Below are positions 22,691 to 41,787 of a stretch of 42,858 nucleotides of DNA, piece after piece; position 1 is the stretch's first letter, and the number at the start of each line of letters is the position of its first letter. The notes beneath the pieces are model-generated. The model was not told where the DNA came from. It did not search any database and saw only the letters and a program-made list of their open reading frames with translations. The translations under genes were made by a program, and so were the position numbers. Origin of the DNA: a candidate division WOR-3 bacterium (GTDB taxonomy: Bacteria > Hydrothermota > Tepidihabitantia > SM23-42 > JAOAFX01); assembly GCA_039802265.1 (NCBI GenBank), contig JBDRWI010000009.1, positions 1 to 42,858 on the forward strand, read 5' to 3'.

Positions 22691-22709
22691 AAAACCTCCC
22701 TTATCATTT

Positions 22710-25700
22710 CTATCTTAAAAGAACCGCCTTTTTAACAGTTTTAAAATCTTCAGTGGTTAATTGGATAAAATAGACACCGGCCGGAAGTCTCCGACCTAAA
22801 TCATCAGAACCATCCCAGGTCATTTCCGTATTTTGTAAATCATGGGTCGTAAGTCGGGAAAAATCACGGACAAGCCGACCCGTAATATCATAAATTCTCA
22901 ATCCAACTTCCTGCGCATTACGGCATACGGCATACGATATGCGCAATACGCTCCGGAATGGATTGGGATAAATATTCAGCGCTAACCTTTCACCTTCCAT
23001 TTTTAACTTTTCACCCTCGCCAATTCCGGTCTCATTGTGAATATGGAGGGTGAAGTAAACATAAGTTTCATAATTGCCATTATTTCCCGTAAAATAGACC
23101 CCCATTCCCACGAAAGTATCCACCGGATTATGGACAATTTGAATAAAATAGGGATCTAAAGAATTATTACCGGTTCCACCAACTTCTATATCACCAAAAC
23201 CCGCACTGCTGTCAATAAGCGAAATACTCGGAGAATTTTCTTTGAGAAATCCATTGAGACTAAAGACAGTGGTATCGCCATTATTTGCTACATTTATTAC
23301 AACCATTATTGTCTCATCAGGCTCGGGAATGCCATTGTTATTTCCACCCTGGGAGTCGTCAATTGTCCAGCCTATTAAATTTATCCATGGTGATGGCTGA
23401 CTTATTGGCGGCTTCGTTGTAACCAAAAGTGCCCTGCCATTTACCAGGGGTGCTGCGTTCGGGTCATAATTATCATCAAAGAGATATTGTAAACCACGGG
23501 TCTCGGTCTCATCTTCTATTCCAACGGTATTGCTTGTTGCATTGGATATCGTATTATAATAAAAAAGGATTTCTCCATCTCCGGTTGGGGTAGGATAATA
23601 ATTCGGGTCACGCAGGACAATCTGGAATGTCTGCCAGGCTCCACTGCCGTATCCAAGTGCTACTTGATAGAATTCTACATACCAGAGATGATGGGTCGGG
23701 TCATAATAATAGTATATATCACCATGTCCCGAAGAACTCGGGTCTAAATCATCCCAGTAAGGTGCAGCAAACCGCTTTGCCCTGCCCACAGTCGGGATTG
23801 GGTCATTATAACTATAAGGATATGTCGCCCCCCCAATCTCCACAAAGCCATTTGAACAAATCCCGATTGTGTTATAGTCTACACCATAGAATTTGAATGT
23901 GAATGGAAGAGTCAAGGTCACGGTATCGGCATCTTCATTGGTTATCTCCCATATAATTGTGCCCGGTCCCCCGGCCGAAGAGGCAATCTCAAACCAGGCA
24001 TAATTAGGCGCCCGACCGGTGAGTGTATCGGTATCGTCATAAATGTAGTATCCATAAGGGTCAGGTCCGGTTCCACTTCCACCCCCGCTAAGCCCGGTGG
24101 TCATCAGAGAAAAACTTGCATACCAGGTACTGTCGTTTGCATCCATCATTATTAAGTCAAATGGTATGAGATGGGCATAGGTCTTTGGTGCGACAGTAAA
24201 AACAAATGGATTTAATCCACTTGATATACTTCCCGGATTGAGGTTCCCATAAAAGGAAATACTATCACTGATTGCGACCAGGGTATCGGTAGTTCTCAAT
24301 ATTGCCCTGACATTTGGGGCAGCAACCCCACCTACATTCTTTATTGTTGCCCAGAGTAAAATAGTCTCGCCCGGGTCTACAATTCCATTATTATTGCCCA
24401 GAGAGTCCTCAATTGTGTTATAAAGATAACTAAGAGAAATATCACTGACTACAATTGAAACGGTGCCTTCAAATGGGTATAAATTTCTGCCGGTTACGGT
24501 AATATCCATAATTCCAGGCTGAGGTGCATTGAATACAAAGGTAATCATACCCGAAGAATTTGTCCAGCCAGTCTGGTATATGAGCGTATCAAACATAATA
24601 CAGACATAGGCAGACTCAATCGGGTTATTCTGATATTGAACATTCACTTCAAGTGTTTCTTCAATTCCCGCATAAAGGATGGAATCGTATGTCACCGTTA
24701 TCAACTTTGGTTTGGCAGTCCAGATGGTCATTGCCGGGTCACCAACTGTAGTAAATCCCTGATATTCGGTTGTAGAGCCCATATTATAAACCCTCAATCT
24801 ACCATCCTCACAGGCCTGGCCGAATGTCCTTCTTTTATATAAGAAGACACCATCAAAGAAACCCCGGGTGACTGCACTTCGATAATAAGCAAGACCGCTA
24901 CCGCTCGTCGTTGTTGCAAAATAACCTGACGCTCCCCTCAGGGTAGTTGGGGTTCCAGTCAAAAACCAACGCTCGGCGGTCGCTGGGTTTGAACCGGTCC
25001 CCAAAGTTCCGCAGGTTGCAGAGATCACTATCGGCAGTTTATTTCCATTGGCAAGGATATTAGGCTCAATATTAAAGGGCCAGTACCAGTTATTTGTTGC
25101 ACTTCCCCGATATAGTACAAATCCCCTGCCATTATTGGTGGCATTCCGAACTGAATCTGCGTTGTCGCCATTAAGGGCATAGAATGTATCAATCTTTGTG
25201 TAGCCATTGCTGACCATCAATCCGGCAACATACCAGGTATCCTGACGATAGAGTGCAGAATCATCATCAGGATACCCATTTTGCCCATAGGCATTGGCAA
25301 TCAAACATCCTTTCTTAAACCAGGTTGAGTCGGTAATGTCGGGATATCTCTCATACCTTAACATCTTTGCAACGACGGTCTGTGCCTCACTCACCTGTCT
25401 CACCGTCAATCTTCCCGAAAGAATCTCATTGCGTACATCTCCAGTTATATTCGTATAGTTATTATCACCAAACGGTGTACTACTAAAAGACCAGGGGATG
25501 TAGGGATTTCCACCAACGAATAGAATATATTCCGGCCTTATCTGCCAGTTGTTATATGCGTTGACAATATAATTTCTGATTGCTGTTGAATTCTGGGCAA
25601 GTTGTGAAGGGACCCTAACAATCTTTGTGCGCAGTCCCATCTTATGCTTCCACTGGGCATAGGGTAATATGGCGTCATAAAAATCGTCGTGAGTGATGAT

Positions 25701-25787
25701 TAAATATTTTGCTCCGATCTCCTGAGAATATCCTTGAGTATATAGAATCAAGATTGAGATAAGAAATGTCTTCATGAAATTATTCAT
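22710..25787 (-). CDS. C25 (gingipain-like) family protein A with Ig domains, GPDxYGY domain and T9SS-type CTD
   Basis: YLIITHD, QWKHKMG, PEYILFVG, SGRL, LPIVISATC, GDPAM; CTD IYPNPF..IYDITGRLVR..LPAGVYF. Confidence 0.85.
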   Translation of the reverse strand: MNNFMKTFLISILILYTQGYSQEIGAKYLIITHDDFYDAILPYAQWKHKMGLRTKIVRVPSQLAQNSTAIRNYIVNAYNNWQIRPEYILFVGGNPYIPWSFSSTPFGDNNYTNITGDVRNEILSGRLTVRQVSEAQTVVAKMLRYERYPDITDSTWFKKGCLIANAYGQNGYPDDDSALYRQDTWYVAGLMVSNGYTKIDTFYALNGDNADSVRNATNNGRGFVLYRGSATNNWYWPFNIEPNILANGNKLPIVISATCGTLGTGSNPATAERWFLTGTPTTLRGASGYFATTTSGSGLAYYRSAVTRGFFDGVFLYKRRTFGQACEDGRLRVYNMGSTTEYQGFTTVGDPAMTIWTAKPKLITVTYDSILYAGIEETLEVNVQYQNNPIESAYVCIMFDTLIYQTGWTNSSGMITFVFNAPQPGIMDITVTGRNLYPFEGTVSIVVSDISLSYLYNTIEDSLGNNNGIVDPGETILLWATIKNVGGVAAPNVRAILRTTDTLVAISDSISFYGNLNPGSISSGLNPFVFTVAPKTYAHLIPFDLIMMDANDSTWYASFSLMTTGLSGGGSGTGPDPYGYYIYDDTDTLTGRAPNYAWFEIASSAGGPGTIIWEITNEDADTVTLTLPFTFKFYGVDYNTIGICSNGFVEIGGATYPYSYNDPIPTVGRAKRFAAPYWDDLDPSSSGHGDIYYYYDPTHHLWYVEFYQVALGYGSGAWQTFQIVLRDPNYYPTPTGDGEILFYYNTISNATSNTVGIEDETETRGLQYLFDDNYDPNAAPLVNGRALLVTTKPPISQPSPWINLIGWTIDDSQGGNNNGIPEPDETIMVVINVANNGDTTVFSLNGFLKENSPSISLIDSSAGFGDIEVGGTGNNSLDPYFIQIVHNPVDTFVGMGVYFTGNNGNYETYVYFTLHIHNETGIGEGEKLKMEGERLALNIYPNPFRSVLRISYAVCRNAQEVGLRIYDITGRLVRDFSRLTTHDLQNTEMTWDGSDDLGRRLPAGVYFIQLTTEDFKTVKKAVLLR

Positions 25788-25795
25788 TATTATAT

Positions 25796-25823
25796 ATTAT
25801 ACTCATAATTAGACTTAAGTCAA
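25796..25823 (-). promoter_or_regulatory. Promoter of C25-A with palindrome over the -35
   Basis: TTGACT-N16-TATAAT; GACTTAAGTC palindrome 25812..25821; 8 nt to ATG 25787. Confidence 0.7.
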
Positions 25824-26013
25824 GAGGAGAGATTGGAATAAATATAATGATGAACCAATAGTGCCCATTTGTGGAAACATTAATCACAAAAAATTTGATT
25901 GGTTCAAGTTAACACTAATATAATTATTATTCGCTGTAAATTAAGGAACTGGTAATACTATATATTTAAAAACAAGACATAAAATAGATTAGATTATATA
26001 TTTGGGAGGTCTC

Positions 26014-27531
26014 ATGAAATTTCAGCGTTATTCTGTGCTGCTAATAATTGTGTTCTTGATTCAATATGGCCATTCTGCGCCAATCTGGCCCAACTGGAAA
26101 TACGACCGGCAGTTAACCGGCAGATGTCCTTATTATGGCCCAGACAGAGACATCTTATTGTGGTCTTTTTCTACCCCAGATACATTCTCTATCCGCAGTG
26201 CTTCCCCGGTTATCGGCGAGGATGGAACAGTCTATTTTAGCAGTCCGGATAGCTTTATCTTTGCAGTTAGACCGAACGGCACCGAAAAATGGCGCTATAA
26301 GATAGGGAACTGTGTCCCTGGGGGCTTTCCAGCAATAGACCAGCGGGGAAGGCTCTATTTCAACACCACTGATTCTCGGGTAGTCGCAATTGATGACTCT
26401 GGGACCTATGCAAAATTAGCCTGGCAGCGGGATTGTTCAGATAGCACTGTTCCAATTTTTAGTCTAACCCCTGTGGTTGTGGGTAGTGATAGAACCGTCT
26501 ATGTATCCCTTGATTCACTATATGCCATTGACAGCCTCGGTAATAGAAAATGGGCATATAACACCGGGTTAACTAATGGTTTTCCACCTGCAATATCCCT
26601 TGATGGTTCCTATTTATATTACGAATATTGCTCAGACCCTTTTACAAACAATATTGCAAAGAGACGAACTGATGGTACCTTGATTTGGACACATTATATT
26701 GGCGGTGCACCAGGAAGTCTGACCTGGGCAAGCCCCTGTATTGGTGCAGACAGCACGATATATTTTGCGGCCAATGATGCGTATCTCCATGCGATTATGC
26801 CTAACAATACCGACAAATGGGCGCCGGTAAGTCTTACAGGGGCATTTCTGTATGTTACGGTATCTCTTGGAATAAATGACACCATCTGGCTTATGAATCG
26901 TCAGAAAAGGCCAGTCTATTGGAAGTTTTCACCCACCAATGGTTCCGAGGTCCTTAAAGATTCCATTACCTACACCCCCTCGCGTTACAACCTTTATAAC
27001 TCATTTATTACTGATGTTTCGGGTAGGGCATTTATTGCCCTGATTGATTCGGGCACATATAACCTTACATTATATGTCTTTGAGAGTAATGGCACATTAA
27101 ACAGGACATACACCATTCCCCTTGAAGGTAGACGGACAAACCGGACCTTTCCGGCAATGGCACCAGGCAGATTTTATCTTGTGGGAGGAAACAAGTTATA
27201 TGCCTTTCAGGGTGGAAGTATTGGAGTTAAAGAAACTGAAATGAGCGATCTCCCGGTTTCAGTTAAAATCTTTCCCAATCCATTTTGCACGAAGGCAGAA
27301 ATTAAAATTACGCCTACCACTACATCTTTCTTCGTGAAGATTTATGACTCTGCCGGCAGGTTGGTGCGCGATTTTTCACGACTTACGACTTATGATAGAC
27401 GCGCTACGGAATTCATCTGGGATGGCACCGATAATTCTGGTATCCCGGTTAAATCCGGTGTTTATTTCTGCCGAGTAGAAGGACCTAAAATCATAAAAAC
27501 CGAAAAACTTGTGTTGATAAGAGAAAGATAG
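26014..27531 (+). CDS. PQQ-like (BamB-type) beta-propeller protein 1 with T9SS/FlgD-type CTD
   Basis: SD GGAGG, signal peptide; SPVIGEDGTVYF..IFAV.PNGTEKW repeats; CTD IFPNPF..IYDSAGRLVR..WDGTD..SGVYF. Confidence 0.85.
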   Translation: MKFQRYSVLLIIVFLIQYGHSAPIWPNWKYDRQLTGRCPYYGPDRDILLWSFSTPDTFSIRSASPVIGEDGTVYFSSPDSFIFAVRPNGTEKWRYKIGNCVPGGFPAIDQRGRLYFNTTDSRVVAIDDSGTYAKLAWQRDCSDSTVPIFSLTPVVVGSDRTVYVSLDSLYAIDSLGNRKWAYNTGLTNGFPPAISLDGSYLYYEYCSDPFTNNIAKRRTDGTLIWTHYIGGAPGSLTWASPCIGADSTIYFAANDAYLHAIMPNNTDKWAPVSLTGAFLYVTVSLGINDTIWLMNRQKRPVYWKFSPTNGSEVLKDSITYTPSRYNLYNSFITDVSGRAFIALIDSGTYNLTLYVFESNGTLNRTYTIPLEGRRTNRTFPAMAPGRFYLVGGNKLYAFQGGSIGVKETEMSDLPVSVKIFPNPFCTKAEIKITPTTTSFFVKIYDSAGRLVRDFSRLTTYDRRATEFIWDGTDNSGIPVKSGVYFCRVEGPKIIKTEKLVLIRER

Positions 27532-27547
27532 AAGATTAGGAGGTTAT

Positions 27548-28633
27548 ATGCAAAAGTATCTATTATTTATTGCATCATTGATTGGACTGGGATTTACAAC
27601 GATGACATATATGGATGGTGTGTTGGTTCGTACATCAGATAACTATATTTCAGCAGAGCGATTGCCGATAAGGCAGTTCAATGTCATTGATTCATTTCCA
27701 GCAGCAGCCAGCGGTTATTCAATGGGGCTTGCCTGTGATGGCAAATATCTCTGGAATAATGAGACATTTATCTATTGGTTCGCCCGGATGGATACGGTGA
27801 ATGGCAGTATCATAAACACCTTCACTCCGGTTTTAGGTAATCGCGATATGACATTTGATGGACAATACCTCTGGGCCTCGGATTGGCAGACTGGTTCTAT
27901 CAATAAATACGACACTTCAAACTGCTCTGTGATTGCAACCTATTATCCGCAATTTAGTGCAGGCAAACCAAATGGAATGGCCTGGGATGGTGCCTATCTC
28001 TGGGTGGGTGAAGAGTCAGGCAATATTTATAAAATGACCACCACCGGTGATATAGTTCGCTCAATTCCACCGCCGGTTTATTATTCCTATGAGCCACGAG
28101 GACTGGCATTTGATGGTCAATATCTGTGGGTTGGTTATCAGAGTTCCGGTTTGATTTATAAAGTTGATACAACAAATGGTGCGGTACTTGAAGTTTATTC
28201 AGCACCAGGGGCAGTTCCCGGCTGGAGATTTCAACAGGGACTTGATTGTGACGGCTACTTCCTCTGGTCAACTGTTGGTGGTAGCGTGCAGATGATTTAT
28301 CAGATTGACATTGGACTGCCCGGGGCCGAAGAGCATAAAAACAAGATAGCTCCACAACCGCGTGTCAAACTTATCGTAAATCCTAATCCCTTTGTTAAAA
28401 GTACAAACATATCGTTCATCCTCAAAAGTGGTGCAAATGTGAGGCTCTCCATCGTTGATGCCGGTGGCAGGGCTATCGCCACTCTAATAGAAAGAAAATT
28501 TTTACAACCGGGTTCTTATGAGTATACCTGGCAATCAACTCCCATTCAATCTGGTATCTATTTTATCTTGCTGGAAACAGACGATAGGATAACACTCCGT
28601 AAGATTGTACGCCTGCAATTAGGGCGCGAATAA
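27548..28633 (+). CDS. Beta-propeller protein (G(L/M)AxDGxYLW repeats; glutaminyl-cyclase/YncE-like) with T9SS-type CTD
   Basis: Five repeats: GLACDGKYLW, DMTFDGQYLW, GMAWDGAYLW, GLAFDGQYLW, GLDCDGYFLW; SD AGGAGG; CTD PNPF..SGIYF. Confidence 0.8.
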   Translation: MQKYLLFIASLIGLGFTTMTYMDGVLVRTSDNYISAERLPIRQFNVIDSFPAAASGYSMGLACDGKYLWNNETFIYWFARMDTVNGSIINTFTPVLGNRDMTFDGQYLWASDWQTGSINKYDTSNCSVIATYYPQFSAGKPNGMAWDGAYLWVGEESGNIYKMTTTGDIVRSIPPPVYYSYEPRGLAFDGQYLWVGYQSSGLIYKVDTTNGAVLEVYSAPGAVPGWRFQQGLDCDGYFLWSTVGGSVQMIYQIDIGLPGAEEHKNKIAPQPRVKLIVNPNPFVKSTNISFILKSGANVRLSIVDAGGRAIATLIERKFLQPGSYEYTWQSTPIQSGIYFILLETDDRITLRKIVRLQLGRE

Positions 28634-28660
28634 AAATACCCAAACATGAGTGAGGATAGA

Positions 28661-30169
28661 ATGAAGTTCTATTTTGATCGTAGATTATTATTAATACTTT
28701 TGGCAAGTTTAGCCATTTCTGCTCCGATCTGGCCAAACTGGAAATACGACCGGCAGTTAACCGGCCGATGCCCTTATATCGGTCCTGAACAACCCGAAAT
28801 CGACTGGACATTTGATACCGGTGATACATTCAGAATTCGCAACGCTTCTCCTGTAATAGCCGAAGATGGGACCATATATTTCAGCAGTCCTGATAGTTTT
28901 GTTTTCGCAATAAACCCTGATGGCACTCAGAAATGGTGCTACAAAACGCAAGGTGTACCTTATTACCCAACGTTAGATGATTGGGGCAGGATCTATGTTG
29001 GAGTAATGGGAGACAGCATCTGGGTTTTAGCACTTGATGATTCCGCCACCTATGCTAAATTAGTCTGGTCGTGGAGTCAGATAAATACAGAAAATTACTG
29101 GCTTCCCCCCTTAGTTATTGGACCAGATAGAACAGTCTATATCACCACCGATTCTTTGCGGGCAATTGATAGTACCGGACTTTTAAAGTGGAGCTACAAT
29201 CGGGGGATATATTGTGGCTATCCACCGGCAATGTCTCCGGATTATTCAAATCTATACTACGAGTCAGCAGATCAGTATACTGTTTGGCTTACAAGTAGAG
29301 ATACCAACGGAATCCTTAACTGGATAAGGGTTATAGGGCCTGCCCCTATGGCATTAACCTGGGGTAGCCCGGCAATTGGTACAGATAGTACGATATATTT
29401 GGTTACCGGTGACGGATGGTTGTATGGAATCCGACCCAATAATACTGACAAATGGCCTCCGCTCTGGAACCTCGGAGATTTGATATTTCAATCTGTTTCA
29501 CTTGGTTTAAATGATACCCTATGGTTGATGAATCGGGGCTATAGACCAATCTATCGCAAATTCTCGCCGGATGATGGTTCAATTACTTTTGAAGATACAA
29601 TTATAACCACACCCTCGCAAAGCAATATGTATGGCTCATTTATCATTGATGCCCTTGGCCATGCTTATATTGTGGTCCGTGATTCAGGCATTGTACAAAG
29701 CACTCTATATGCATTCAATCCTGATGGAACAATTAAATGGAGCTATGCACTGCCCGGTAGAATATACAGAAGTTATCCGGCTATTGGACCGAATAGATAC
29801 CTATATGTTGTCGCCGGCACAACCCTATATGCAATTCGTGATGGTTATAGTGTAACAGAAAAAGTTTCCGGGGATAAAGTGAATTTTGACATTCATATTT
29901 ATCCCAATCCATTTCGGAACCGGCTAAATATAAGATTCAGAATATTGGGTCAAGAAGCAGGAAATAAAAAAATTGTTGTATCAGTTTATGATGCCCTGGG
30001 TCGGAGAGTAAAATCCTTCAATCTTGAGTCCAGCAACAAGGATAAAATATCAAATGTTGCCTGGTTTGGGGATGATGATCTTGGTCATGAACTTCCAGCC
30101 GGTATTTACCTGTTAGAGTTTGTAGTGGATGGTTTCAAAAAAACCGAGAAAGTAGTATTGCTGAAATAA
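28661..30169 (+). CDS. PQQ-like beta-propeller protein 2 (paralog of 26014..27531) with T9SS-type CTD
   Basis: Shares SAPIWPNWKYDRQLTGRCPY and ASPVI.EDGT.YFSSPDSF; CTD IYPNPF..LPAGIY. Start is 28661 or 28646. Confidence 0.85.
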   Translation: MKFYFDRRLLLILLASLAISAPIWPNWKYDRQLTGRCPYIGPEQPEIDWTFDTGDTFRIRNASPVIAEDGTIYFSSPDSFVFAINPDGTQKWCYKTQGVPYYPTLDDWGRIYVGVMGDSIWVLALDDSATYAKLVWSWSQINTENYWLPPLVIGPDRTVYITTDSLRAIDSTGLLKWSYNRGIYCGYPPAMSPDYSNLYYESADQYTVWLTSRDTNGILNWIRVIGPAPMALTWGSPAIGTDSTIYLVTGDGWLYGIRPNNTDKWPPLWNLGDLIFQSVSLGLNDTLWLMNRGYRPIYRKFSPDDGSITFEDTIITTPSQSNMYGSFIIDALGHAYIVVRDSGIVQSTLYAFNPDGTIKWSYALPGRIYRSYPAIGPNRYLYVVAGTTLYAIRDGYSVTEKVSGDKVNFDIHIYPNPFRNRLNIRFRILGQEAGNKKIVVSVYDALGRRVKSFNLESSNKDKISNVAWFGDDDLGHELPAGIYLLEFVVDGFKKTEKVVLLK

Positions 30170-30201
30170 CAATACAGCTCAATAATAAAGTCACTTATCC
30201 T

Positions 30202-33200
30202 TTACCGGAGGAGAACAGCCTTCTCTACCTTGTTAAAATCTTTGGCTTCTAAGCGGACAAAATAGACGCCGGATGGCAATCTACGACCCATATCATCCTC
30301 GCCATACCATTCAACCGTTGAACGTTTACCGCTGACTGTTAACCGAGAAAAATCTTTAACCATCCTGCCAGTAACATCATATATCACAAGCCTAACGCCT
30401 TCCCCTACATCATCGTTAGGAATTGGGAATTTGGGATTTGTTTCGGATTTCGAATTTCGGATTTTATATTTTATCATTAGTTGATTTCGGAATGGGTTGG
30501 GATAAATGTTCAGTACCAACCTTACCCCTTCCATTGTTAACTTTTCACCCTCGCCAATTCCGGTTTCATCGTGAATATGGAGGGTAAAGTAAATATAAGT
30601 TTCGTAATTCCCATTATTCCCCATAACATAGACTTCCATGCCTGCTAATGTATCAACAGGATTGGAAGCAATTTGAATAAGATATGGCTCAGAAGAATTA
30701 TTTCCAACCGCCCCGACTTCTATATCGCCAAAACTGGCACTGCTATCAATGACTGAAACACTTGTGGAATTTGTCCGCAGCGTTCCGACAACACCGGTAA
30801 CACCCATATTACCATCATTTCTGATACAAAGTGTTATCTCCACAGTCTCACCAGGTTCAGGAATGCTGTTATTATTGCCCCCTGTCGAATCGTTTATTGT
30901 ATAATTTAAAAGATTTATCCAGGGTGAATGTTGACCCGCTGGTGGCTTTGTAGTAATCAAAAGTGCCCGACTATTGTTTAGGGGCACAGCATTCGGGTCA
31001 TAGTTATTGTTATAAACATATTGCAGCCCACGGGTTTGGGTTTCGTCTTCTATTCCAACACTATTTTCATTTGGGTTTGCCACTGTATTATATAAAAACA
31101 GAATTTCGCCATCACCGGTTGGGGTGGGATAATACTGGGGATCAAGTAAAATCGCCTGAAATGTCTCTCTTGTAGAAGTATTTCCATAGTGGCAACAATC
31201 CTTATATTCAACTATCCAGCGGTGATTTGTAGTATCATTGTAATAATAAATATCACCATATCCCTGGGGCTCAGGTCTCGGGTCAAGGTCGTCCCAGAAA
31301 GGCGCAAGAAGTCTTCTTGGGCCACCAATTAATGGAATCGCGGTATTTTCACCAAAACGGTAGGTGGAAGAGCCGAGTTCCAAAAAACCATTTGAACATA
31401 GACCAACAGTATTGTAATCTACCCCGTAGTACTTAAAGGTAAATGGTAGACTGTAAGTAACTGTATCAGCATCTTCGTCAGTAATTTCGCTAACGATCAG
31501 GCCGGGTCCGGGTGGAGCAATCTCAAACCAGTTATAAACTGGTGCATTACCGGTTAATGTATCGGTATCATCATAGATGTAATAACCATAAGGGTCTGGT
31601 CCAATTCCACCATTGGTTCCCGAGATTAGGATTGTAAAGTTATCAGACCAGGTATCACCCTGGGCATCAGTCATAACGACTTCAAATTGAACCGGATTGG
31701 TACTGGCAAAGGGCGAAACTGAAAAGACAAAAGGATTTAGGCCGAAAAGGGAAATATTGGGTGGAATTTCACCATAATGGGAAATGCTATCGGCAATAAA
31801 AATTGTACTGTCCGTTGTACGCAGAATTGCGTCCACATCTAAGGCTGTGCCCTGCCCACCATTTTGTAGATTTGCCCAGAGGAGTATTGTCTCCCCTGAA
31901 TTTACCTGTCCATTCTGGTTTCCCAAGGAATCGCTGAAGTAGTTGCCGAGGTAACTTATGTAGGCACTACCAGATGTTATCTGAACCACACCTTCATAAG
32001 GATAGAGATTCCTGCCAGTTACGGTAATGTCCATTGTCCCTGGTATAGGTGGAGTAAATATAAAAGAGACCGTTCCACTTGAATTTGTATAGCCTGTTTG
32101 ATAGATCAGTGTATCGAGGACGATGCAAACAAAGGCAGATTCAACAGGCATTCCCTGATGTTGAACCACGACATTAAGGGTCTCTTCAACACCTGCATTG
32201 AGCATTGTATCATAATATACTTCGATCCTCTTTGGCTTTGCAGTCCAGATCTGCATTGCCGGGTCACCAAGGGTTGTAAATCCACGATACTCTTGTGCAC
32301 TACCCCAGAGTTGATAAACATTTCTTCTACCCGCTTCACAGGCCTCACCAAATAGCATCTTTCGGTCGTTAAAGATGGCATTGAAGAATCCCTTACAGAC
32401 CGCGCTCCTCAAATATGCCTGTCCGATAACAATAGTAGTCGTGGCAAAATATCCTGCCCCACCTCGTGGTTGAGTTGGGGTTCCGGTCAATAGCCATCTC
32501 TCGGCAGTTGCCGGGTCGCCACTTGTCGCAATTGTCTTGCATGTAATAGAAAGGACGATGGGAAGTCTTACCCCATTCTGGGTCAGGTCTGGATTGACAT
32601 TAAATGGATCCCACCAATAACCCACCCCCTGACCCCTGTATAGCACAAATGCCCTTCCCTGATTTACCCTTGATATCACATCATTGGCATTATTACCCAG
32701 TTGGCTTGATAGTGTATCAATCGTATTGTATCCCCAGCCCGACATCAGTGCCTTGGCATGTCTTATATCACTCCAGTATATTGAATCATCGTAAGGGTCA
32801 TCATCTTCCCGCACAATGAGACAGGCATTTATAAGCCAGTCACCCGTCGTATCCGGATACCTTTCATAATAAAGCATTTTATTAACAACTGTCTGCGCCT
32901 GGGTTATATTGCGCACGGTCAAACGACCGGAAAGTATCTCGTTATAGATATCTGTGGTATCTATGTTTGTGTAATAATTATCGGTGTAAGTTCCAGAAAC
33001 CGTTGGAAATGCCAGAAAACTTGGGCCACCGACCAGGAGCAAAAACTCGGGTTTTATCGGCCAGTTATTATAGGCATTTCTGATATAATTTCTAATTGCA
33101 CCTGCATTATTACCACCAATCTCAGAGAGCTTTACAACCTTTGTGCGCAATCCCATCTTATGCTTCCACTGGGCATAGGGCAGGATTGAGTTATAAAATG

Positions 33201-33291
33201 TATCGGCGGTAATAATCAGATACCTTGCCCCTATTTCCTGGGCGGAAATTAAGGCATAAGAAAAAAGAATTAAAAGAAGAAACCTTTTCAC
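30202..33291 (-). CDS. C25 (gingipain-like) family protein B (paralog of 22710..25787) with T9SS-type CTD
   Basis: GTG start after SD AGAGGTG; same architecture; LPIVLSITC, LGDPAM, GPDPYGYYIYDDTD; CTD IYPNPF..LPSGVYF. Confidence 0.85.
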   Translation of the reverse strand: MKRFLLLILFSYALISAQEIGARYLIITADTFYNSILPYAQWKHKMGLRTKVVKLSEIGGNNAGAIRNYIRNAYNNWPIKPEFLLLVGGPSFLAFPTVSGTYTDNYYTNIDTTDIYNEILSGRLTVRNITQAQTVVNKMLYYERYPDTTGDWLINACLIVREDDDPYDDSIYWSDIRHAKALMSGWGYNTIDTLSSQLGNNANDVISRVNQGRAFVLYRGQGVGYWWDPFNVNPDLTQNGVRLPIVLSITCKTIATSGDPATAERWLLTGTPTQPRGGAGYFATTTIVIGQAYLRSAVCKGFFNAIFNDRKMLFGEACEAGRRNVYQLWGSAQEYRGFTTLGDPAMQIWTAKPKRIEVYYDTMLNAGVEETLNVVVQHQGMPVESAFVCIVLDTLIYQTGYTNSSGTVSFIFTPPIPGTMDITVTGRNLYPYEGVVQITSGSAYISYLGNYFSDSLGNQNGQVNSGETILLWANLQNGGQGTALDVDAILRTTDSTIFIADSISHYGEIPPNISLFGLNPFVFSVSPFASTNPVQFEVVMTDAQGDTWSDNFTILISGTNGGIGPDPYGYYIYDDTDTLTGNAPVYNWFEIAPPGPGLIVSEITDEDADTVTYSLPFTFKYYGVDYNTVGLCSNGFLELGSSTYRFGENTAIPLIGGPRRLLAPFWDDLDPRPEPQGYGDIYYYNDTTNHRWIVEYKDCCHYGNTSTRETFQAILLDPQYYPTPTGDGEILFLYNTVANPNENSVGIEDETQTRGLQYVYNNNYDPNAVPLNNSRALLITTKPPAGQHSPWINLLNYTINDSTGGNNNSIPEPGETVEITLCIRNDGNMGVTGVVGTLRTNSTSVSVIDSSASFGDIEVGAVGNNSSEPYLIQIASNPVDTLAGMEVYVMGNNGNYETYIYFTLHIHDETGIGEGEKLTMEGVRLVLNIYPNPFRNQLMIKYKIRNSKSETNPKFPIPNDDVGEGVRLVIYDVTGRMVKDFSRLTVSGKRSTVEWYGEDDMGRRLPSGVYFVRLEAKDFNKVEKAVLLR

Positions 33292-33311
33292 TTTTCACCT
33301 CTTTGTTCGCT

Positions 33312-33339
33312 ATTATATCCAAATCAAGACTTAAGTCAA
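33312..33339 (-). promoter_or_regulatory. Promoter of C25-B with palindrome over the -35
   Basis: TTGACT-N16-TATAAT; GACTTAAGTC 33328..33337. Confidence 0.7.
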
Positions 33340-33507
33340 TATTTATCTTACCGAATAAAAAAGTATATATACCCCATAACTTCCGGCACCTTTTTGGTCT
33401 TCCACTCCTTCAATTTTCAATATTAAAGGGTATAATTATTGAATCTTGGGCGCTAGCCCGAATTTAAAATCTATATTTGAGAAGGAATAATTGTAATACG
33501 CACTGAG

Positions 33508-33540
33508 AAGAAGAGGAGGGGTAATACCCCTCCTCTTCTT
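33508..33540. terminator. Strong hairpin 10 bp after the stop of 33551..35350
   Basis: AAGAAGAGGAGGGGTA-A-TACCCCTCCTCTTCTT. Confidence 0.8.
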
Positions 33541-33550
33541 ATTTTCATCA

Positions 33551-35350
33551 CTACTTTACCAGGATAATCTTTATCTTCTCCTGGTTATCTCCTATACAGA
33601 AGTATATACCCTGGTCAAGGCGGTTTCCTTTATCGTCGTAACCATTCCAGATGCCACTACCTTCTTCAAGATTTAGATTCTTCACGAGTCTTCCACTTAC
33701 ATCATATATCTTTGCCCTGTTAACATAGCCAGGGAAGTTAACTGCTGTGTAATTAGTGAAGGGATTGGGAGTTGCATAGGCAATCTTTGAATTATTCTTG
33801 GCTACCGGTCTAATCTCTTCCACTCCGGGTCCGGATTCAACACTTGCCCGAATCAAAATATCCATTGTAGCATTATCACGGTGTGGTGCCCAGGAACCCG
33901 TGTATTCATAGCCCCGCATTGAAAAGAGCGGGTCGGTATCCATTGAGAACCCTGGTTCAGCAGCATTCTCGCAGATACCGCCTACATAAAAGGCACCTTC
34001 GGTAATCACAAAATTGTGACCGCTGACATCTATATACCTCCATCCAGTATCAGTTACTACAATGAGTGTGTCAAATAACACAGTCCCTGGTTCTCCATTT
34101 GGACCATCGTCATCAATCAACTGACAATGGACCGGTGCATTTCCGCTCGTTACCGAACCAAAATGGAAAATCAACTGATTGACTTTCGCCGCATACTTCG
34201 GTGGGAAAAACTTATTCCCCCAACCTGAATTAGGACCATTCCATGCCATCACCTGTTCATAGGTATTATTGTCATACTGGAGTGTTACAGGGTATGTAAC
34301 GACTCTAGTCTCAACCATAACTGAATCATTTGATGGAGTCATATCGCCACTCAGTAACGATTTTACCTTCAGGGAATATTGACCATTAACTGTTGATGAC
34401 CAGGAAGGAGTAAAGACAATTGAATCGGTGGTGCCCGGCGTTAAACTGGGAACAGTAACCGTATCCGCAAACACAATCTGGTTGGACGGATTCCTTACCT
34501 GACAATAGACATTGAAATTGGACTCAGGTTGATTACCTGTATTCTTAACGACTGCCCAGAAATTTACCGGATCGCCATTATAGATAAATATACCGCCGGA
34601 GACATCATTCATTGCCTTCCAGACTGCAATATCATGCACCTCATAGGTCGTTGTTTCTGGTGGATAGAAACGAATGGCAAGATTTGCATGGATTGTATTC
34701 CCAGAAGGCACATTATCGTGATTATATTGAAGGCCGACCGTTCCTGAGACATTTTCAATACCCACAGTTAAGTAGTTTGTCCCTCCACCCGGAGTTCCAT
34801 TCTGAACAAGATACTGGAAGGTTATTGAACTATCGGGCTTTGAAAGTATGATCTGAAATGTATTTAGACTTGTACCAACATTCCAGAAACGGACACTATC
34901 ATACTGGATAATACAGGTATCTTGAGCAGCATTTGTCCAGTACCAGCATGTACCCTGCGGTGTGAAATCAATATCGCTCATCAGGGGAGCAAGGACATTA
35001 TTGGGCGTCTGAGGATTGGGAAGTGTCTGGAACGGATGAGCTTCAAGGGTCGGGTCCCCAAAGGCAATGTAGCCATTGGAGCCAACATAAAATGAGTTTA
35101 CCCGATACCAGTAGTATGGAAACTCAAATCCAATATTAAAAGGACCAACCACATTATCATCAGCCAGGCCAGTAATCTGAGTGCCGATTCCCTTTATATC
35201 AATCCACTGGAAGGTAGGTCCACCCGTTGTATCGCTATCAATCCAGCGATAGCCGTATGCATCAGGACCACCAGCACCACTAATTGTCGGTTCAGTAATA
35301 CTGAAGAAAGGTGAACCAACAACTTGAAACATTATTAATAGATATAGCAT
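33551..35350 (-). CDS. Secreted protein with GPDxYGY (nidogen-like) domain, CARDB domain and FlgD/T9SS-type CTD
   Basis: GGPDAYGYRWIDSD, IGFEFPYY, SNGYIAF, TVGIEN; VKNTG..GDMTPSND; CTD PNPF..IYDVSGRLVK..WNGYD..GIYF; SD AAGGAGG. Confidence 0.8.
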   Translation of the reverse strand: MLYLLIMFQVVGSPFFSITEPTISGAGGPDAYGYRWIDSDTTGGPTFQWIDIKGIGTQITGLADDNVVGPFNIGFEFPYYWYRVNSFYVGSNGYIAFGDPTLEAHPFQTLPNPQTPNNVLAPLMSDIDFTPQGTCWYWTNAAQDTCIIQYDSVRFWNVGTSLNTFQIILSKPDSSITFQYLVQNGTPGGGTNYLTVGIENVSGTVGLQYNHDNVPSGNTIHANLAIRFYPPETTTYEVHDIAVWKAMNDVSGGIFIYNGDPVNFWAVVKNTGNQPESNFNVYCQVRNPSNQIVFADTVTVPSLTPGTTDSIVFTPSWSSTVNGQYSLKVKSLLSGDMTPSNDSVMVETRVVTYPVTLQYDNNTYEQVMAWNGPNSGWGNKFFPPKYAAKVNQLIFHFGSVTSGNAPVHCQLIDDDGPNGEPGTVLFDTLIVVTDTGWRYIDVSGHNFVITEGAFYVGGICENAAEPGFSMDTDPLFSMRGYEYTGSWAPHRDNATMDILIRASVESGPGVEEIRPVAKNNSKIAYATPNPFTNYTAVNFPGYVNRAKIYDVSGRLVKNLNLEEGSGIWNGYDDKGNRLDQGIYFCIGDNQEKIKIILVK

Positions 35351-35605: not shown

Positions 35606-35633
35606 TTGACATTTAACCAAAAATGTCTATAAT
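35606..35633 (+). promoter_or_regulatory. sigma70-like promoter for tmRNA
   Basis: TTGACA-N16-TATAAT. Confidence 0.75.
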
Positions 35634-35649: not shown

Positions 35650-35999
35650 GGGGGCGATGGGTTTTGACGGAATGAATGAGGTGAATGAGGGCATACCGAG
35701 GGTCCTGGCCACCTCGTAAATCCGACCATGAGAAAAAAACATCCTGCAAACACAGGATACGCACTGGCTGCATAAAATAATGTAGCCACGCCTACCCAGG
35801 TTCAGCCCAACTTGGGATAGGTGTCATATAGGGCTAAACCTTGTCAACTCTGGCCTCAAGGGTTGGCATTGTAATCTCTGAGGCTTGCTCTAATCAACCT
35901 GTCCCTTGGTAAAGATTAGAGGAGAATTATAAAGGGAATAAGTATGTAGTCCTCTTCACTGAAGCATTCCGGACGCGGGTTCGATTCCCGCCGCCTCCA
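35650..35999 (+). ncRNA. ssrA: tmRNA (one-piece); tag peptide ANTGYALAA
   Basis: 5' GGGGGCG..TTTTGACGG pairs with 3' CGCCTCC-A with a G3.U wobble; T-arm GCGGGTTCGATTCCCGC; tag ORF GCA AAC ACA GGA TAC GCA CTG GCT GCA TAA at 35746..35775; CCA not encoded. Confidence 0.95.
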
Positions 36000-36066
36000 C
36001 TGGTAGCTTGTGGTAAGTGAAATTTTTCATTAATAAAAAGCAAGATTATGGCTTAAAATATTATAC

Positions 36067-36094
36067 TTGACAGGAATAAATTTTGGCGTATAAT
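36067..36094 (+). promoter_or_regulatory. sigma70-like promoter for the SBP-TonB gene
   Basis: TTGACA-N16-TATAAT; SD AAGGAGG before ATG 36137. Confidence 0.75.
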
Positions 36095-36136
36095 GTATAT
36101 TATAATAGTAACGCAACTTAGAAAAAGGAGGCAAAT

Positions 36137-38179
36137 ATGAAGAAATTTTTGCCCTTATTGTTTCTTCTGGTTATTATTATTAGTTGCGCCCAAAAAGTAG
36201 AACCAATAAAGGGTGAACGGGGCGGGAAAATGGTAATTGGAACAACAGACTTGCCAAGTATTATTTCGCCTCTTCAACCGTCGGTCTTCGGTTCAAATGA
36301 GATTCTTGACCTCTTATTTATGAAACTTCACAGCATTGACCCAAAGACGGGCAAGATGACACCGGAACTGGCAGCTTCCTGGGAATTTTCAGAAGACCTG
36401 ACTACCATCACTTACTATCTGCGTTCCGATATTAAATGGTGGGATGGTGAACCAGTTACTGCTGAAGATGTCCTTTACACATTTGAAAGGATGCAGGACC
36501 CCAAAACAAATTACCCAATGGTGAGTAGACTTCGATTCATCAAAAAGGCAGAGGTTGTAAATAAATATGCGATAAAATTCACCTTCAGTCAGGTTTATGC
36601 TGACCTTCTGACCGATTCAGATATTATGCCCATTCCCAAACATATCTATGAAAAATCACCCGATGATTTCGGTAAAAAGAAGATTATTGGTAACGGTCCT
36701 TATAAAGTCAAAGAATGGACTCCTGGTTCTGGACTGGTCTTGACCGCGAATGAAGATTATTATCGGGGTCGCCCACCACTTGATGAAATCTATATTAAGT
36801 ACTACACCGACTTTAGTGCGATGATTAACGACTTCGTACAAGGAAACCTTGATCTGGCATTAAATTTAACCCCCGAGGATGCGAAGAAACTATCTGAGAA
36901 TAAGAGTATTAATATTACTACAAACCCGGGGAATACTTATACCTACATTGGGTGGAATCTCAGTAACGAATTCTTAAAAGACAAAGAAATCCGCAAGGCA
37001 TTGAGCATGGCAATCGATAAATCCAAAATTTTAAACCAAGTTTTTTCGGGAATGGGTAAGATTTCGCTCGGACCACTTCCACCATCTTCCTGGGCATTTA
37101 ATGAGAACCTCGCACCCATAGAATATAATGTGTCAAAGGCAAAAGAGATTTTGACAAAAAAAGGATTTGAGGACCGCAATCGCAACAATGTATTGGATAT
37201 GAATGGTAGAGACCTTACCCTCACAATAATCACAAACATCGAAAGTCCAGTCCGTGTTGAGATTCTAAAGAATGTTACCGCTGACTTAGCCCAACTCGGG
37301 ATAAAAGTAAATGCCCAGACCCTTCCGGCAAATGAATTCATTACGGCCCTGATTAACAAACGTTTTGATGGTTTCATTATGGGATGGAGTGTCGGAGATA
37401 AGATTGACCCAACCCTCTACTGGCATTCTGAACCAACCAAGGGAAGATACAATTTTGTTGGATATAAGAGTAGCATTGTTGATTCACTCATTGAGATTGG
37501 TGTAACCATGCTCAACCGCAAAAAGGCAAAAGAAATCTGGAATGAATTTCAGAGGATTATTTATGAGGACCAGCCTTATACATTCCTTGTTGTTCCGGAT
37601 GTAATTGCCGCCTGCTATAAGAGACTGAAAGGAACAGATGATGGAATAAAACTTGCAAGTGCCTATACCTATTGGATTCCTGAATCGGAAAGGAGAATGG
37701 TTGTAGCAACGATAACCCAGCCTCTGCCCACGCCGACAACCGAGAAACCGAAATTAGAAGAGAAGAAACCGGAAGCACCCAAACCACCCCCCACTGTTGA
37801 ACCTGAAAAGTTGTTAGAGGCAGCAGCAGCGAAGAAAGAGACAACTGCGGTAGCGACGACACCCCCAACAGAAGTTACACCACCACCCCCTCCACCACCT
37901 AAACCCGCTGTCATTACCAAACCAATTCCCATAAAACAGGTATCACCAAAATATCCTGAGTCGGCAAAGGCAATTGGTGCCACGGGCCGGGTAGTAGTCA
38001 GGGTTGTGGTGGGCATTGATGGAAAGGTCAAGGCTGCGACAATCATCTCCAGTTTTGGAAATCCAGCCTGCGAGGAAGCTGCGCTTACTGCTGCAAAACA
38101 ATGGGAATTTAAACCCGCAACCAGAGACGGTGAACCGTTTGAACAGAATATCTCCATCCCTTTTGACTTTAAGCCCTAA
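36137..38179 (+). CDS. Lipoprotein: family-5 (OppA/DppA-like) solute-binding domain, Pro-rich linker, TonB C-terminal domain
   Basis: Lipobox IIISC; PELAASWEFSED, KWWDGEPVTAEDVLYTF, GNGPYKV, IRKALSMAIDK; linker ..PPPPPPPKP; TonB_C PKYPESAKAIGATGRVVVRVVVGIDGKV..AAKQWEFKPATRDGEP..IPFDF. Confidence 0.9.
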   Translation: MKKFLPLLFLLVIIISCAQKVEPIKGERGGKMVIGTTDLPSIISPLQPSVFGSNEILDLLFMKLHSIDPKTGKMTPELAASWEFSEDLTTITYYLRSDIKWWDGEPVTAEDVLYTFERMQDPKTNYPMVSRLRFIKKAEVVNKYAIKFTFSQVYADLLTDSDIMPIPKHIYEKSPDDFGKKKIIGNGPYKVKEWTPGSGLVLTANEDYYRGRPPLDEIYIKYYTDFSAMINDFVQGNLDLALNLTPEDAKKLSENKSINITTNPGNTYTYIGWNLSNEFLKDKEIRKALSMAIDKSKILNQVFSGMGKISLGPLPPSSWAFNENLAPIEYNVSKAKEILTKKGFEDRNRNNVLDMNGRDLTLTIITNIESPVRVEILKNVTADLAQLGIKVNAQTLPANEFITALINKRFDGFIMGWSVGDKIDPTLYWHSEPTKGRYNFVGYKSSIVDSLIEIGVTMLNRKKAKEIWNEFQRIIYEDQPYTFLVVPDVIAACYKRLKGTDDGIKLASAYTYWIPESERRMVVATITQPLPTPTTEKPKLEEKKPEAPKPPPTVEPEKLLEAAAAKKETTAVATTPPTEVTPPPPPPPKPAVITKPIPIKQVSPKYPESAKAIGATGRVVVRVVVGIDGKVKAATIISSFGNPACEEAALTAAKQWEFKPATRDGEPFEQNISIPFDFKP

Positions 38180-38346
38180 AGGATAGTGGAAAATTATTGG
38201 GAGAAACAAAATCGCCCAGATAACTAAAAGGTCTGCGCATTGACGGTGAATAGTGCACAACCTCCGGAAAACAGTATCCTCCGGTAATTTATGAGAAAAT
38301 TCCCGAAGAGATCTTTTTTATTGTAAACGCGTTCGCCAAATTACGC

Positions 38347-38374
38347 TTGACATTGATAAAAAATTGTGTAAAAT
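38347..38374 (+). promoter_or_regulatory. sigma70-like promoter, probably leaderless, for fab operon
   Basis: TTGACA-N16-TAAAAT, then 5 nt to ATG 38380. Confidence 0.7.
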
Positions 38375-38379
38375 TGACT

Positions 38380-39111
38380 ATGAATTTAAATGATAAGGTT
38401 GCCCTCGTAACAGGTGGCGCAGCGGGCATTGGCGCCGCAATTTGTAAAAAATTTGTTGAGAATGGTGCCAAGATAATTATCGGGGATATCGATGAGCAAA
38501 ATGGGAATCTGCTGGCAGAGAAACTCGGCAAGAACGCCTATTTTTACTTCCTAAATATTACGGACGAGAATAATGTGAATAAAGTGGTTGACGATATTGC
38601 GAAGACCCACGGCAAAATAGACATATTGGTCAATAATGCCGGTATTACAAACGATAAGTTACTACTGCGTATGACCAAAGAAGACTTCAATCAGGTGATT
38701 GAAGTCAATCTTACCGGTACTTTTTTAGTCACCCGGGCAGTTTCAAGGTATATGATAAAACAGCGCTTCGGCAGGATTATAAACATTGCCTCGGTTATCG
38801 GTTTAATCGGTAATATCGGACAGGCAAACTATGCAGCAAGCAAGGCCGGTATTATCGGACTCACAAAGTCCTGTGCCAAGGAATTTGCTCAAAGAAATAT
38901 CACCGTAAATGCCATTGCGCCGGGTTTTATTGAAACAAGAATGACTGAAGGTTTATCCTCCGAAGTGAAAGAGGCATATTTAAAACTTATCCCCTTGGGT
39001 CGCTTTGGTAGACCTGAGGATGTGGCTGAACTTGCATTGTTTCTATCCTCAGACCAGGCAGGGTACATTACCGGACAGGTAATTACCCTTGATGGTGGCA
39101 TGGTAATGTAA
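38380..39111 (+). CDS. fabG: 3-oxoacyl-ACP reductase
   Basis: TGGAAGIG, NNAGIT, GQANYAASK (YxxxK), IAPGFIET; followed by acpP and fabF. Confidence 0.93.
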   Translation: MNLNDKVALVTGGAAGIGAAICKKFVENGAKIIIGDIDEQNGNLLAEKLGKNAYFYFLNITDENNVNKVVDDIAKTHGKIDILVNNAGITNDKLLLRMTKEDFNQVIEVNLTGTFLVTRAVSRYMIKQRFGRIINIASVIGLIGNIGQANYAASKAGIIGLTKSCAKEFAQRNITVNAIAPGFIETRMTEGLSSEVKEAYLKLIPLGRFGRPEDVAELALFLSSDQAGYITGQVITLDGGMVM

Positions 39112-40614: not shown

Positions 40615-41198
40615 GGAAAAAGATTGTGATTGGTATTTGCGGAAATATTGGTTCGGGGAAAACTACAGTTGCTCGGATATTTGCCAATTTAGGCGCGCGC
40701 TATCTCTCTGCCGATGAATTGGGCTGGAAGGTCTTGCCCAAAATTTCTGCTGGTCTAAAAAGGGAATTTGGCACAAATTTCTTTTCCGATGGTAAGGTCG
40801 ACAGAAAGAAACTGGCTGAAATCGTCTTTGCTAATAAAGAGAAACTGGATAGATTAAATCGCCTTTCCCATCCAATACTTATAAAAAGTCTTATTAGGGA
40901 ATTAGCAAAAATAAAATCCGGTATCGTTGTGGTTGATGGCGCCCTGCTCTTTGATTGGCCAAAAGTTTACAAAAAGATTGATTTTCCGATTCTGGTGGTT
41001 GCAAAAAGAAAATTGAAGAAAATGAGGACTATTAAACGCGGCATCTCTGAAAATCTATTTAATAAAATAATATCGGTCCAGAAAAGTGAAAAAGAGATGG
41101 CACAGATGGCTAAGGATATAATAAGAAATAATGGCACCCTTGCGTCATTAGAAAAAAGGTGCCGAAAGTTATTTGAGGAGTTGCGGAATGATTGTTGA
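40611..41198 (+). CDS. coaE: Dephospho-CoA kinase
   Basis: IGICGNIGSGKTTV, VDRKKLAEIVF, LNRLSHP, IIRNNGTL. Confidence 0.9.
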   Translation: MRKKIVIGICGNIGSGKTTVARIFANLGARYLSADELGWKVLPKISAGLKREFGTNFFSDGKVDRKKLAEIVFANKEKLDRLNRLSHPILIKSLIRELAKIKSGIVVVDGALLFDWPKVYKKIDFPILVVAKRKLKKMRTIKRGISENLFNKIISVQKSEKEMAQMAKDIIRNNGTLASLEKRCRKLFEELRNDC

Positions 41199-41787
41199 AT
41201 GCAGTGGTTGTCATACAAAATATAATGTTGATGATAACAAAATCCCTCCAGCCGGAATTAAAGTTCGCTGCCATAAGTGTGGAACGATTATCTTACTGAA
41301 AAAGGAAATACCACCGCCTCAGCCCGAAGTAAAGAAGGCAGAACCGACGATACCACCTCCTCCAGAGGTTAAACCACCTCCTTCTCCAGCACCAACTCCT
41401 CCTCCGCCGCCCCCTCCTACCCAACCCCCTGCACCTCCCACCCAACCGTCTTCTGAGGTAAAACCTCCGCCTGTGCAACCCGAAATTGAAGTTGTCTCAA
41501 AACCACCAACTCCACCAGTTGCTGAAATGAGTGAAGAGGACAAAAAGTGGCACGAAAGGGCACGACGGCTTGCCAAGGCACTTGCCTCAGACCTCGTTCT
41601 GTATAATCAGGAAAAAGTGGAACAGGGGTTGCGTGAAGGAACACTGGTTCAGCTGCTGGGTAGCGAAATCAGAAAATCCTGGGAGTACTACTGTCAGCAG
41701 ATTCCCAAGCATATTGTTGAAAGCACCGACTACTTTAAAGAACAGTTAAACAAAATCGTCGGCAAGGGAAAGGAAATTTTCAAGTAA
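41188..41787 (+). CDS. MJ0042-type zinc-ribbon protein with Pro-rich linker and helical C-terminal domain
   Basis: ATG 41188 after GAGGAG; CSGC..KVRCHKC; PPPPP linker; ARRLAKALASDLVLYN domain. Confidence 0.75.
   Translation: MIVECSGCHTKYNVDDNKIPPAGIKVRCHKCGTIILLKKEIPPPQPEVKKAEPTIPPPPEVKPPPSPAPTPPPPPPPTQPPAPPTQPSSEVKPPPVQPEIEVVSKPPTPPVAEMSEEDKKWHERARRLAKALASDLVLYNQEKVEQGLREGTLVQLLGSEIRKSWEYYCQQIPKHIVESTDYFKEQLNKIVGKGKEIFK

Follow-up and report, generated by a model that had tools for sequence, protein, structure and literature searches.

TonB reportedly interacts physically with the periplasmic binding protein FhuD, as Carter et al. are said to have described in 2006. Multi-domain proteins that carry a TonB C-terminal domain (TonB_C) occur in Bacteroides thetaiotaomicron and are functionally uncharacterised according to the authors (PMC10350073, in the text available). 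Family 5 of the solute-binding proteins is described as promiscuous, with no clear ligand preference, and solute-binding proteins also serve receptors, some of their roles being poorly understood (available text of PMC10443332). The protein analysed here, P0001, joins a family-5 domain to a TonB_C domain in one chain. Its gene comes from a candidate division WOR-3 bacterium (Hydrothermota; assembly GCA_039802265.1, contig JBDRWI010000009.1, positions 1-42,858), and this whole stretch of 42,858 nucleotides is referred to as the window. The fusion is a real, conserved and uncharacterised joining of two known modules, and its putative role is probably to catch or sense solutes admitted by outer-membrane transporters rather than to feed an Opp importer.

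Architecture, integrity and range of the fusion

P0001 is encoded by a stop-free ORF of 680 residues that comprises SBP_bac_5, a linker and TonB_C (Table 1). A preliminary description of this DNA had proposed an uninterrupted ORF with a lipobox, a family-5 domain, a linker and a TonB_C domain, and this reading holds: both Pfam domains score above cut-off, and the AlphaFold2 model (118 sequences, mean pLDDT 87.5) agrees, with a binding domain complete to approximately residue 520, a confident TonB domain and a disordered linker between them. The N-terminus consists of a short hydrophobic stretch followed by the lipobox cysteine, Cys17, which is invariant in 48/48 close and 27/27 diverse orthologues, and from this sequence pattern we infer lipid anchoring of the fusion protein via Cys17. 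The lipobox with its invariant cysteine, followed by the binding domain, supports the earlier proposal that a lipid-anchored binding protein has taken the place of the TM helix.

Table 1. Features of the fusion gene and its upstream neighbour, in window coordinates.
Feature	Position	Strand	Basis
P0001 ORF, fusion of SBP_bac_5, linker and TonB_C	36137..38179	+	ORF, Pfam, contigs of other runs
Candidate lipoprotein signal peptide, lipobox ending at Cys17	36137..36187	+	Sequence reading; Cys conservation
Family-5 (cluster C) solute-binding domain, residues ~27-518; AppA (1xoc) nearest solved structure	36215..37690	+	Pfam, structure match
Linker island 1, residues 519-527	37691..37717	+	Alignment of 27 diverse members
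Disordered low-complexity linker (Pro/Thr/Glu/Lys/Ala); length and composition differ among the family	37703..37909	+	AlphaFold2, alignment
Linker island 2, residues 555-564, short helix	37799..37828	+	Alignment, AlphaFold2
TonB C-terminal domain, residues ~592-680	37910..38176	+	Pfam, TIGR01352, alignment, Foldseek
Putative sigma70-type promoter, -35/-10 match 12/12, 16-nt spacer	36067..36094	+	Consensus match only
Shine-Dalgarno-like site, 5 nt ahead of the ATG	36126..36131	+	Sequence reading
tmRNA gene, upstream neighbour outside the fusion system; own promoter match at 35606-35633	35650..36002	+	Rfam

The promoter of its own that had been attributed to the gene corresponds to a full consensus match 42 nt upstream of the ORF; the next gene also has a promoter match, and a scan of the window finds 16 sites versus 7.3 ± 2.4 in shuffles. 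The neighbours are the tmRNA gene, a divergent gene for a secreted protein and a gene for a short-chain dehydrogenase, the last of which reads as fabG-like from its position beside a ketoacyl-synthase-like gene. No permease, ATPase, exbBD or receptor gene adjoins the fusion gene in the window, as the preliminary description had also stated.

Several other features of the window were recorded. The tmRNA gene is detected by Rfam and missed by ARAGORN, and at 35967-36003 many unrelated contigs share just its 3' end, a conserved stretch and a frequent integration site; no genomic island is visible in the window. Positions 17913-35350 encode a series of secreted proteins that carry type IX sorting tails, among them two gingipain-like C25 peptidases, an M14 carboxypeptidase and beta-propellers. 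A zinc-ribbon protein whose short C-terminal domain is preceded by a long Pro-rich linker is encoded at 41173-41787, after a dephospho-CoA-kinase-like gene.

The junction between the two modules is intact in contigs of two other assemblies. Contigs of runs X1 and X2 each cover 36003-38400 with 0 gaps, and one contig of run X4 crosses the linker; the sole indel listed across the four runs, one of which may be the source sample of this genome, is at position 36121, upstream of the ORF. A misassembly or split-gene origin is ruled out by the gap-free X1 and X2 contigs and by the intact fusion in relatives, which encode a single fused gene rather than two. All 120 listed of the 353 homologues have both Pfam domains, and those with an organism in the source name are from WOR-3 or TA06. 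Among 201 genomes of the phylum, 92 give a match at 1e-20 and 71, from 13 of 40 families, carry the full fusion in one frame, a count from which five fragmentary cases are omitted, as are G077 and G121, where the gene is truncated by the start of a contig; in G181, the two halves lie on two contigs, both at contig ends. The fusion is intact at 30-88% identity across the 13 families.

A profile search of 1.84 billion representatives returned 15 matches to the whole profile among the 150 proteins listed. On inspection, P0135 is also a fusion and one further protein is a fused fragment, and the rest are nearly all binding-domain-only proteins or binding-domain repeats, with one TonB_C repeat protein. 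The most distant fusion cluster includes TA06 records, and a search from that cluster gives one further fusion among 56 matches. The fusion is an old, compact family of the WOR-3/TA06 lineage that is patchily retained. It is dispensable, since 130 of the 201 genomes are not counted as carriers of an intact fusion though most of them still keep Ton genes. A close-looking relative, the 515-residue binding protein P0136, stops just past the first linker island and has no TonB_C domain; it is either a natural unfused form or a truncation.

The fusion sequence is present in hot-spring metagenomes, and the protein is thus probably thermostable. No RNA dataset is listed among those that contain the sequence, and the single run with a metatranscriptomic label, represented by contigs only, probably consists of DNA. 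Automatic database labels call the fusion either "TonB family protein" or "peptide/nickel substrate-binding protein". The literature searched, which covers few subscription journals, yielded no description of the fusion and no paper joining WOR-3 and TonB, in agreement with the earlier remark that the architecture is not recognised as a characterised one. The word "solute" is absent from the main text of PMC12204202, whose supplements may list TonB architectures.

An AppA-like binding domain and the peptide importer

Pfam places SBP_bac_5 at residues 73-429 (E 8.6e-88, above cut-off). AppA (PDB 1xoc) is the best match both by sequence (E 2.8e-66) and in a Foldseek search with the whole model (E 1.3e-47, TM 0.85 by target), so that the profile and the cluster C fold agree on a complete family-5 domain; the protein scores under every NCBIfam cut-off for named family-5 members. 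Asp160, Arg373 and Trp417, which we take to be residues that anchor peptide termini, are invariant in the 48 close orthologues and are kept in 19/27, 14/27 and 24/27 of the diverse set, respectively. Arg373 of the fusion aligns with Arg373 of the AppA chain, which presumably holds the peptide end. The positions that line the pocket vary across the phylum, and the ligand may therefore not be one peptide class.

The preliminary description had suggested that the protein docks on the TonB box of a receptor and hands peptides directly over to an ABC importer. The AppA-like fold, the lipobox and the precedent of the TonB-FhuD interaction speak for such a hand-off, but its importer is not found in most carriers. 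In this genome (89% complete), the Opp/Dpp permease N-domain and ATPase tail are not found, the only two type-I permeases are both of the sugar type, and OppB and OppC profiles built from WOR-3 have no match among its 4344 ORFs. The two Opp markers, permease and ATPase, occur in 17 and 24 of the 201 phylum genomes versus 11 of 14 control genomes, and 59 of the 71 carriers, this genome included, have neither; the genomes are incomplete and related ones are not independent, and the pattern nevertheless recurs in 13 families. In the single-contig genomes G149 and G187, the fusion is the sole family-5 match, and all 14 type-I permeases of G149 (6), G187 (4) and the two-contig G084 (4) cluster with phosphate or sugar permeases. 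None of the loci around most of the 90 permease matches exceeds 20 bits on the Opp profiles, and the OPT and PTR2 peptide transporters are not found in 5/5 genomes tested.

The 12 carriers that do have Opp markers, which count in favour of the hand-off, are 11 members of family f19 plus G108; in the three Opp-bearing genomes checked by coordinates (G077, G107 and G108), however, a separate family-5 gene lies near Opp on the same contig. Taken together, delivery through Opp/Dpp is already largely refuted, and hand-off to an ABC importer in general is very unlikely. The binding domain of the fusion is mostly an orphan without a cognate Opp importer, because the pattern holds in 13 families.

The scarcity of an importer for the ligand in most carriers is equally what would be expected of a ligand-controlled regulator or sensor of TonB-dependent uptake, whose tail would occupy TonB boxes in competition with the real TonB and whose ligand, once bound, would alter the availability of that tail or signal to a receptor. 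The lineage uses the family-5 domain for sensing: besides the fusion, this genome has five family-5 matches, of which two are MCP fusions, two lie beside a histidine kinase with a response regulator and an EAL protein, and one is cut at a contig end. The stand-alone gene with its consensus promoter also fits a regulator, and the two conserved linker islands described below could relay its state. Neither a receptor nor a kinase is a conserved neighbour, however, and the models separate the two domains by approximately 70 disordered residues, with no confident contact between them or with the islands and thus no visible coupling path. A regulatory role is rather unlikely on this balance.

The sensing-type genes were themselves recorded. 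Two proteins of ~1100 residues (L054:5828-9139 on contig C17 of this genome, G000, and L055:5592-8885 on contig C4) combine MCP signalling domains with a C-terminal SBP_bac_5, and inspection by eye gives no obvious sign of a signal peptide or TM helix; the gene on C17 heads a cheW-cheA-cheC-TPR cluster, and family-5 matches in frames of 1040-1140 residues recur in many WOR-3 families. At L056 (C25:3630-9849), two stand-alone SBP_bac_5 lipoproteins are encoded directly upstream of a HAMP histidine kinase, a response regulator and an EAL protein, likely a two-component system fed by binding proteins.

The TonB tail, the linker and the Ton machinery

Pfam assigns residues 603-679 to TonB_C (E 3.3e-20, above cut-off), and TIGR01352 is also above cut-off. 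The top Foldseek matches of the tail model are TonB C-terminal domains, several of them in transporter complexes (E 6e-6 to 2e-4), and TolA III appears at E 0.14 or worse; among ESM Atlas clusters under 0.8, residues 500-680 retrieve only generic TonB_C clusters. Tyr606, Pro607, Gly617, Gly629 and Pro660 are invariant in 41/41 fusions and 32/32 canonical TonB domains, whereas the region ahead of the last strand differs from the canonical one in most fusions (Glu669 in 31/41 versus Arg, Ala or Lys).

In genus g43, the tail has a different history from the rest of the protein. The binding domains of this genus group with their own family (SH-aLRT 100), but in a 32-row tree, built from 16 of the 43 fusion tails, 14 of the 32 canonical ones and two added adjacent TonBs, their tails fall among the canonical TonBs and form a group with TM-anchored ones (100/97). 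The AU test rejects a common origin for the whole set of fusion tails (p-AU 0.0026, 89 columns). The g43 tail is 61-67% identical to two TM-anchored TonB tails, 56% to an operon TonB and 31-38% to sister fusion tails, and at two g43 loci a TM-anchored tonB lies directly upstream of the fusion. We read these sequence relationships as a probable replacement of the g43 tail by a copy of a canonical TonB domain. A canonical TonB domain thus appears able to serve as a fusion tail, and because of this single replacement event the fusion tail is suggested to dock on TonB boxes; the docking proposed in the preliminary description is plausible given the TonB-type fold and the g43 replacement. Genus g43 (L111-L113) is also the main carrier lineage with an Opp system.

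The fusion tails mostly form a branch of their own with a different last-strand region, which could instead point to a target other than a receptor, such as a component of the envelope or of type IX secretion, a Tol-like protein or peptidoglycan, with the binding domain sensing or holding envelope-derived peptides. Models of the Myxococcus Glt complex place TonB-CTD-like domains on partners that are not receptors (available text of PMC11761067), and this genome encodes another lipoprotein-like TonB_C protein as well as many secreted proteins that bear type IX sorting domains. The fold is nevertheless TonB-like and not TolA-like, a canonical TonB tail is tolerated as a replacement in g43, and no tolB, pal or secretion gene recurs near the fusion in 41 loci. 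A non-receptor target is unlikely overall.

The linker spans ~80-120 residues between the domains across 27 diverse members, and in P0001 the pLDDT falls below 50 at residues 523-553 and 563-588, which agrees with the linker position of 37700-37915 given earlier. The "proline rod" seen there applies to P0001, with 26% Pro in residues 516-605, and not to the family: the Pro content ranges from 4 to 26% in the 27 diverse members, so that a rigid rod is no common feature. Two short islands are conserved within it. Island 1 follows the pattern hydrophobic-polar-hydrophobic-Ala-x-hydrophobic, with hydrophobic residues at 521, 523 and 526 in 81-85% and Ala524 in 21/27 of the diverse members. Island 2 is a helix at 556-563 in the model with Leu560 invariant (27/27), and its pattern occurs in 33/41 fusions versus 0/34 canonical TonBs, the 33/41 being partly by construction, as the pattern was derived from fusions. 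Neither island is placed on a domain in the two models (full-length; residues 514-680). Island 1 was considered as an internal TonB box that folds onto its own tail; neither model places it so, which is a weak negative.

The start of the linker is also the place of the D-box in TonB, whose pattern has been published (PMC10907165, in the text available), and island 1 resembles this pattern by eye, the pattern being short and degenerate and the match in P0001 imperfect. Island 1 could accordingly be imagined as a D-box that binds the ExbD dimer and couples a lipid-anchored, energised TonB to the motor without a TM helix. Island 1 is unstructured in both monomer models, ExbD is present in 199 of the 201 phylum genomes, and the TM helix may serve only to localise TonB according to the available text of PMC10907165. 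However, P0136 ends in a similar stretch with the binding protein only, so island 1 may belong to the binding domain; the bulky binding domain would keep the strand off the membrane, the rigidity of the linker is not conserved, and current models require contact of the TM helix with ExbB for activation (PMC12905483, in the text available). A complex prediction with the periplasmic domains of ExbD1 and ExbD2 and residues 512-545 gave a score of 0.02 and a mark of 0.32, with controls not folded, and speaks neither for nor against the coupling. Energised coupling of this kind is quite improbable.

The preliminary description had alternatively suggested a ligand-gated, ExbBD-independent TonB; such a protein would be driven by its ligand and would open receptors by itself. 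The architecture alone favours this idea, but no energy source is visible, the linker is variable and disordered, with no conserved rod, and all carriers examined retain ExbD alongside a TM-anchored TonB or TolA-like gene; it is extremely unlikely. The ordinary machinery is abundant: this genome has 6 TonB_C, 3 ExbB, 6 ExbD and 6 receptor-barrel matches, plug domains are present in 20/20 carriers tested (28/28 genomes tested), and neither the ExbD profile nor that of the plug domain distinguishes carriers from the other genomes. Carrier G149 has a separate tolQRAB-type operon.

The fusion is genetically apart from this machinery. In 41 loci of up to 18 kb, no ABC, exbBD or receptor neighbour recurs, and the gene is never within an exbBD operon; a receptor adjoins it in 3 loci, all of one family, a Ton operon lies a few genes away in 1 (G149), and a TM-anchored tonB is adjacent in 2. 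Two candidate partners were rejected. A 423-residue multi-TM protein with no Pfam family (L227:5303-6574, contig C13), which adjoins the fusion in 8/41 loci from four families and has look-alikes in Fidelibacterota and Planctomycetota, is ruled out as a specific inner-membrane partner, as it is present in single copy in 191/201 phylum genomes with or without the fusion. The second TM-less TonB_C protein (L055:2639-3373, contig C4), which has a lipoprotein-like signal, TonB_C just after the Cys and then a helical domain, is ruled out as a co-occurring partner, being found in only 12/201 genomes, all of the same order as this genome. As separate observations, L001 and L002 (contigs C34 and C63) are near-duplicate operons with the order exbB-exbD-exbD-tonB-lipoprotein-receptor-secreted protein-barrel, with an identical set of small genes, roadblock-like and membrane, ahead of both, and the TM helices of WOR-3 TonBs have no SHLS motif by eye.

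The best explanation, which we hold tentatively and at less than an even chance, is an unenergised TonB-type tether that would keep a ligand trap beneath TonB-dependent transporters and be followed by a step other than ABC import. The protein would be exported and lipid-anchored via Cys17, as its lipobox suggests, and TonB_C would add a strand to the TonB box of these transporters and so bind them, as its fold and the domain swap suggest. The flexible linker would keep the AppA-like domain near the periplasmic exit of the transporter, where it may capture the incoming solute, most likely an oligopeptide, while the force would still come from the ordinary TonB-ExbBD present in carriers. Because most carriers have no Opp permease at the marker level, the bound ligand is proposed to pass to a non-ABC acceptor, possibly a periplasmic hydrolase, an unrecognised secondary carrier or a receptor. 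The TonB-like fold of the tail, the residues invariant in both fusion and canonical tails, the g43 replacement, the plug domains in carriers, the intact fusion in 13 families, the missing Opp, OPT and PTR2 and the receptor-serving role of some solute-binding proteins all support the tether.

Its main weakness is the competition with the real TonB to be expected of a passive TonB_C that occupies TonB boxes, a behaviour that fits a regulator better than a helper; soluble TonB fragments have a dominant-negative effect. Against the tether also stand the rarity of transporter neighbours (a receptor at 3/41 loci, none conserved), the variable pocket-lining positions, which may mean more than one peptide class, the last strands of the tail, which differ in most lineages and may mean another target, the dispensability of the fusion, and a downstream acceptor that the searches did not find. 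A bolder possibility, which we consider doubtful, is that WOR-3/TA06 cells without a recognised oligopeptide importer use a lipid-anchored, TM-less TonB with a built-in ligand-binding domain that sets its action on outer-membrane transporters, either via a D-box-like contact with ExbD or by gating TonB boxes in step with the periplasmic ligand load; if true, this would add a further layer of control to the Ton system.

Added here to the preliminary description are the mostly absent Opp importer, the g43 tail replacement and the two linker islands. The fusion touches two open questions, namely the hand-over of substrates past TonB-dependent transporters and the role of TM-less TonB_C domains, and its combination of TonB_C and a binding protein in one soluble chain makes both halves directly testable. 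Additionally, the missing Opp, OPT and PTR2 in protease-rich genomes suggest that periplasmic peptides have an unrecognised route or use in this uncultured phylum.

Comparison with known systems

The fusion shares the family-5 fold, the lipoprotein signal and the aligned Arg373 with AppA and other cluster C proteins, to which it adds the linker and TonB_C, whereas most genomes with the fusion have no cognate Opp permease or ATPase. With the TonB of E. coli and Pseudomonas (PF03544), it shares the CTD fold, the Tyr-Pro motif and a preceding disordered linker, which has 26% Pro in P0001 and 4-26% across the 27 diverse members; however, it has a 500-residue binding domain in place of the TM helix for ExbB coupling, it is not genetically linked to exbBD, and its D-box is uncertain. 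It differs from TolA in the absence of a TolA III fold match, of a TM anchor and of the tolQR-tolB-pal context. In Bacteroides thetaiotaomicron, TonB1 and TonB7-11 likewise join TonB_C to unrelated domains; the partners are an M56 peptidase, a carboxypeptidase-regulatory domain, DUF4488 and a second TonB_C, with no solute-binding domain in the rows compared (PMC10350073, in the text available). The Myxococcus proteins GltG and GltJ also carry TonB-CTD-like domains on long disordered tethers outside nutrient uptake, but they are TM-anchored parts of a motility operon (available text of PMC11761067). FhuD delivers to FhuBC, whereas the ABC step is mostly missing with the fusion, which by analogy could be a covalent form of the TonB-FhuD link. 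By the features tested, the fusion belongs neither to the TonB energisers nor to the Opp importers.
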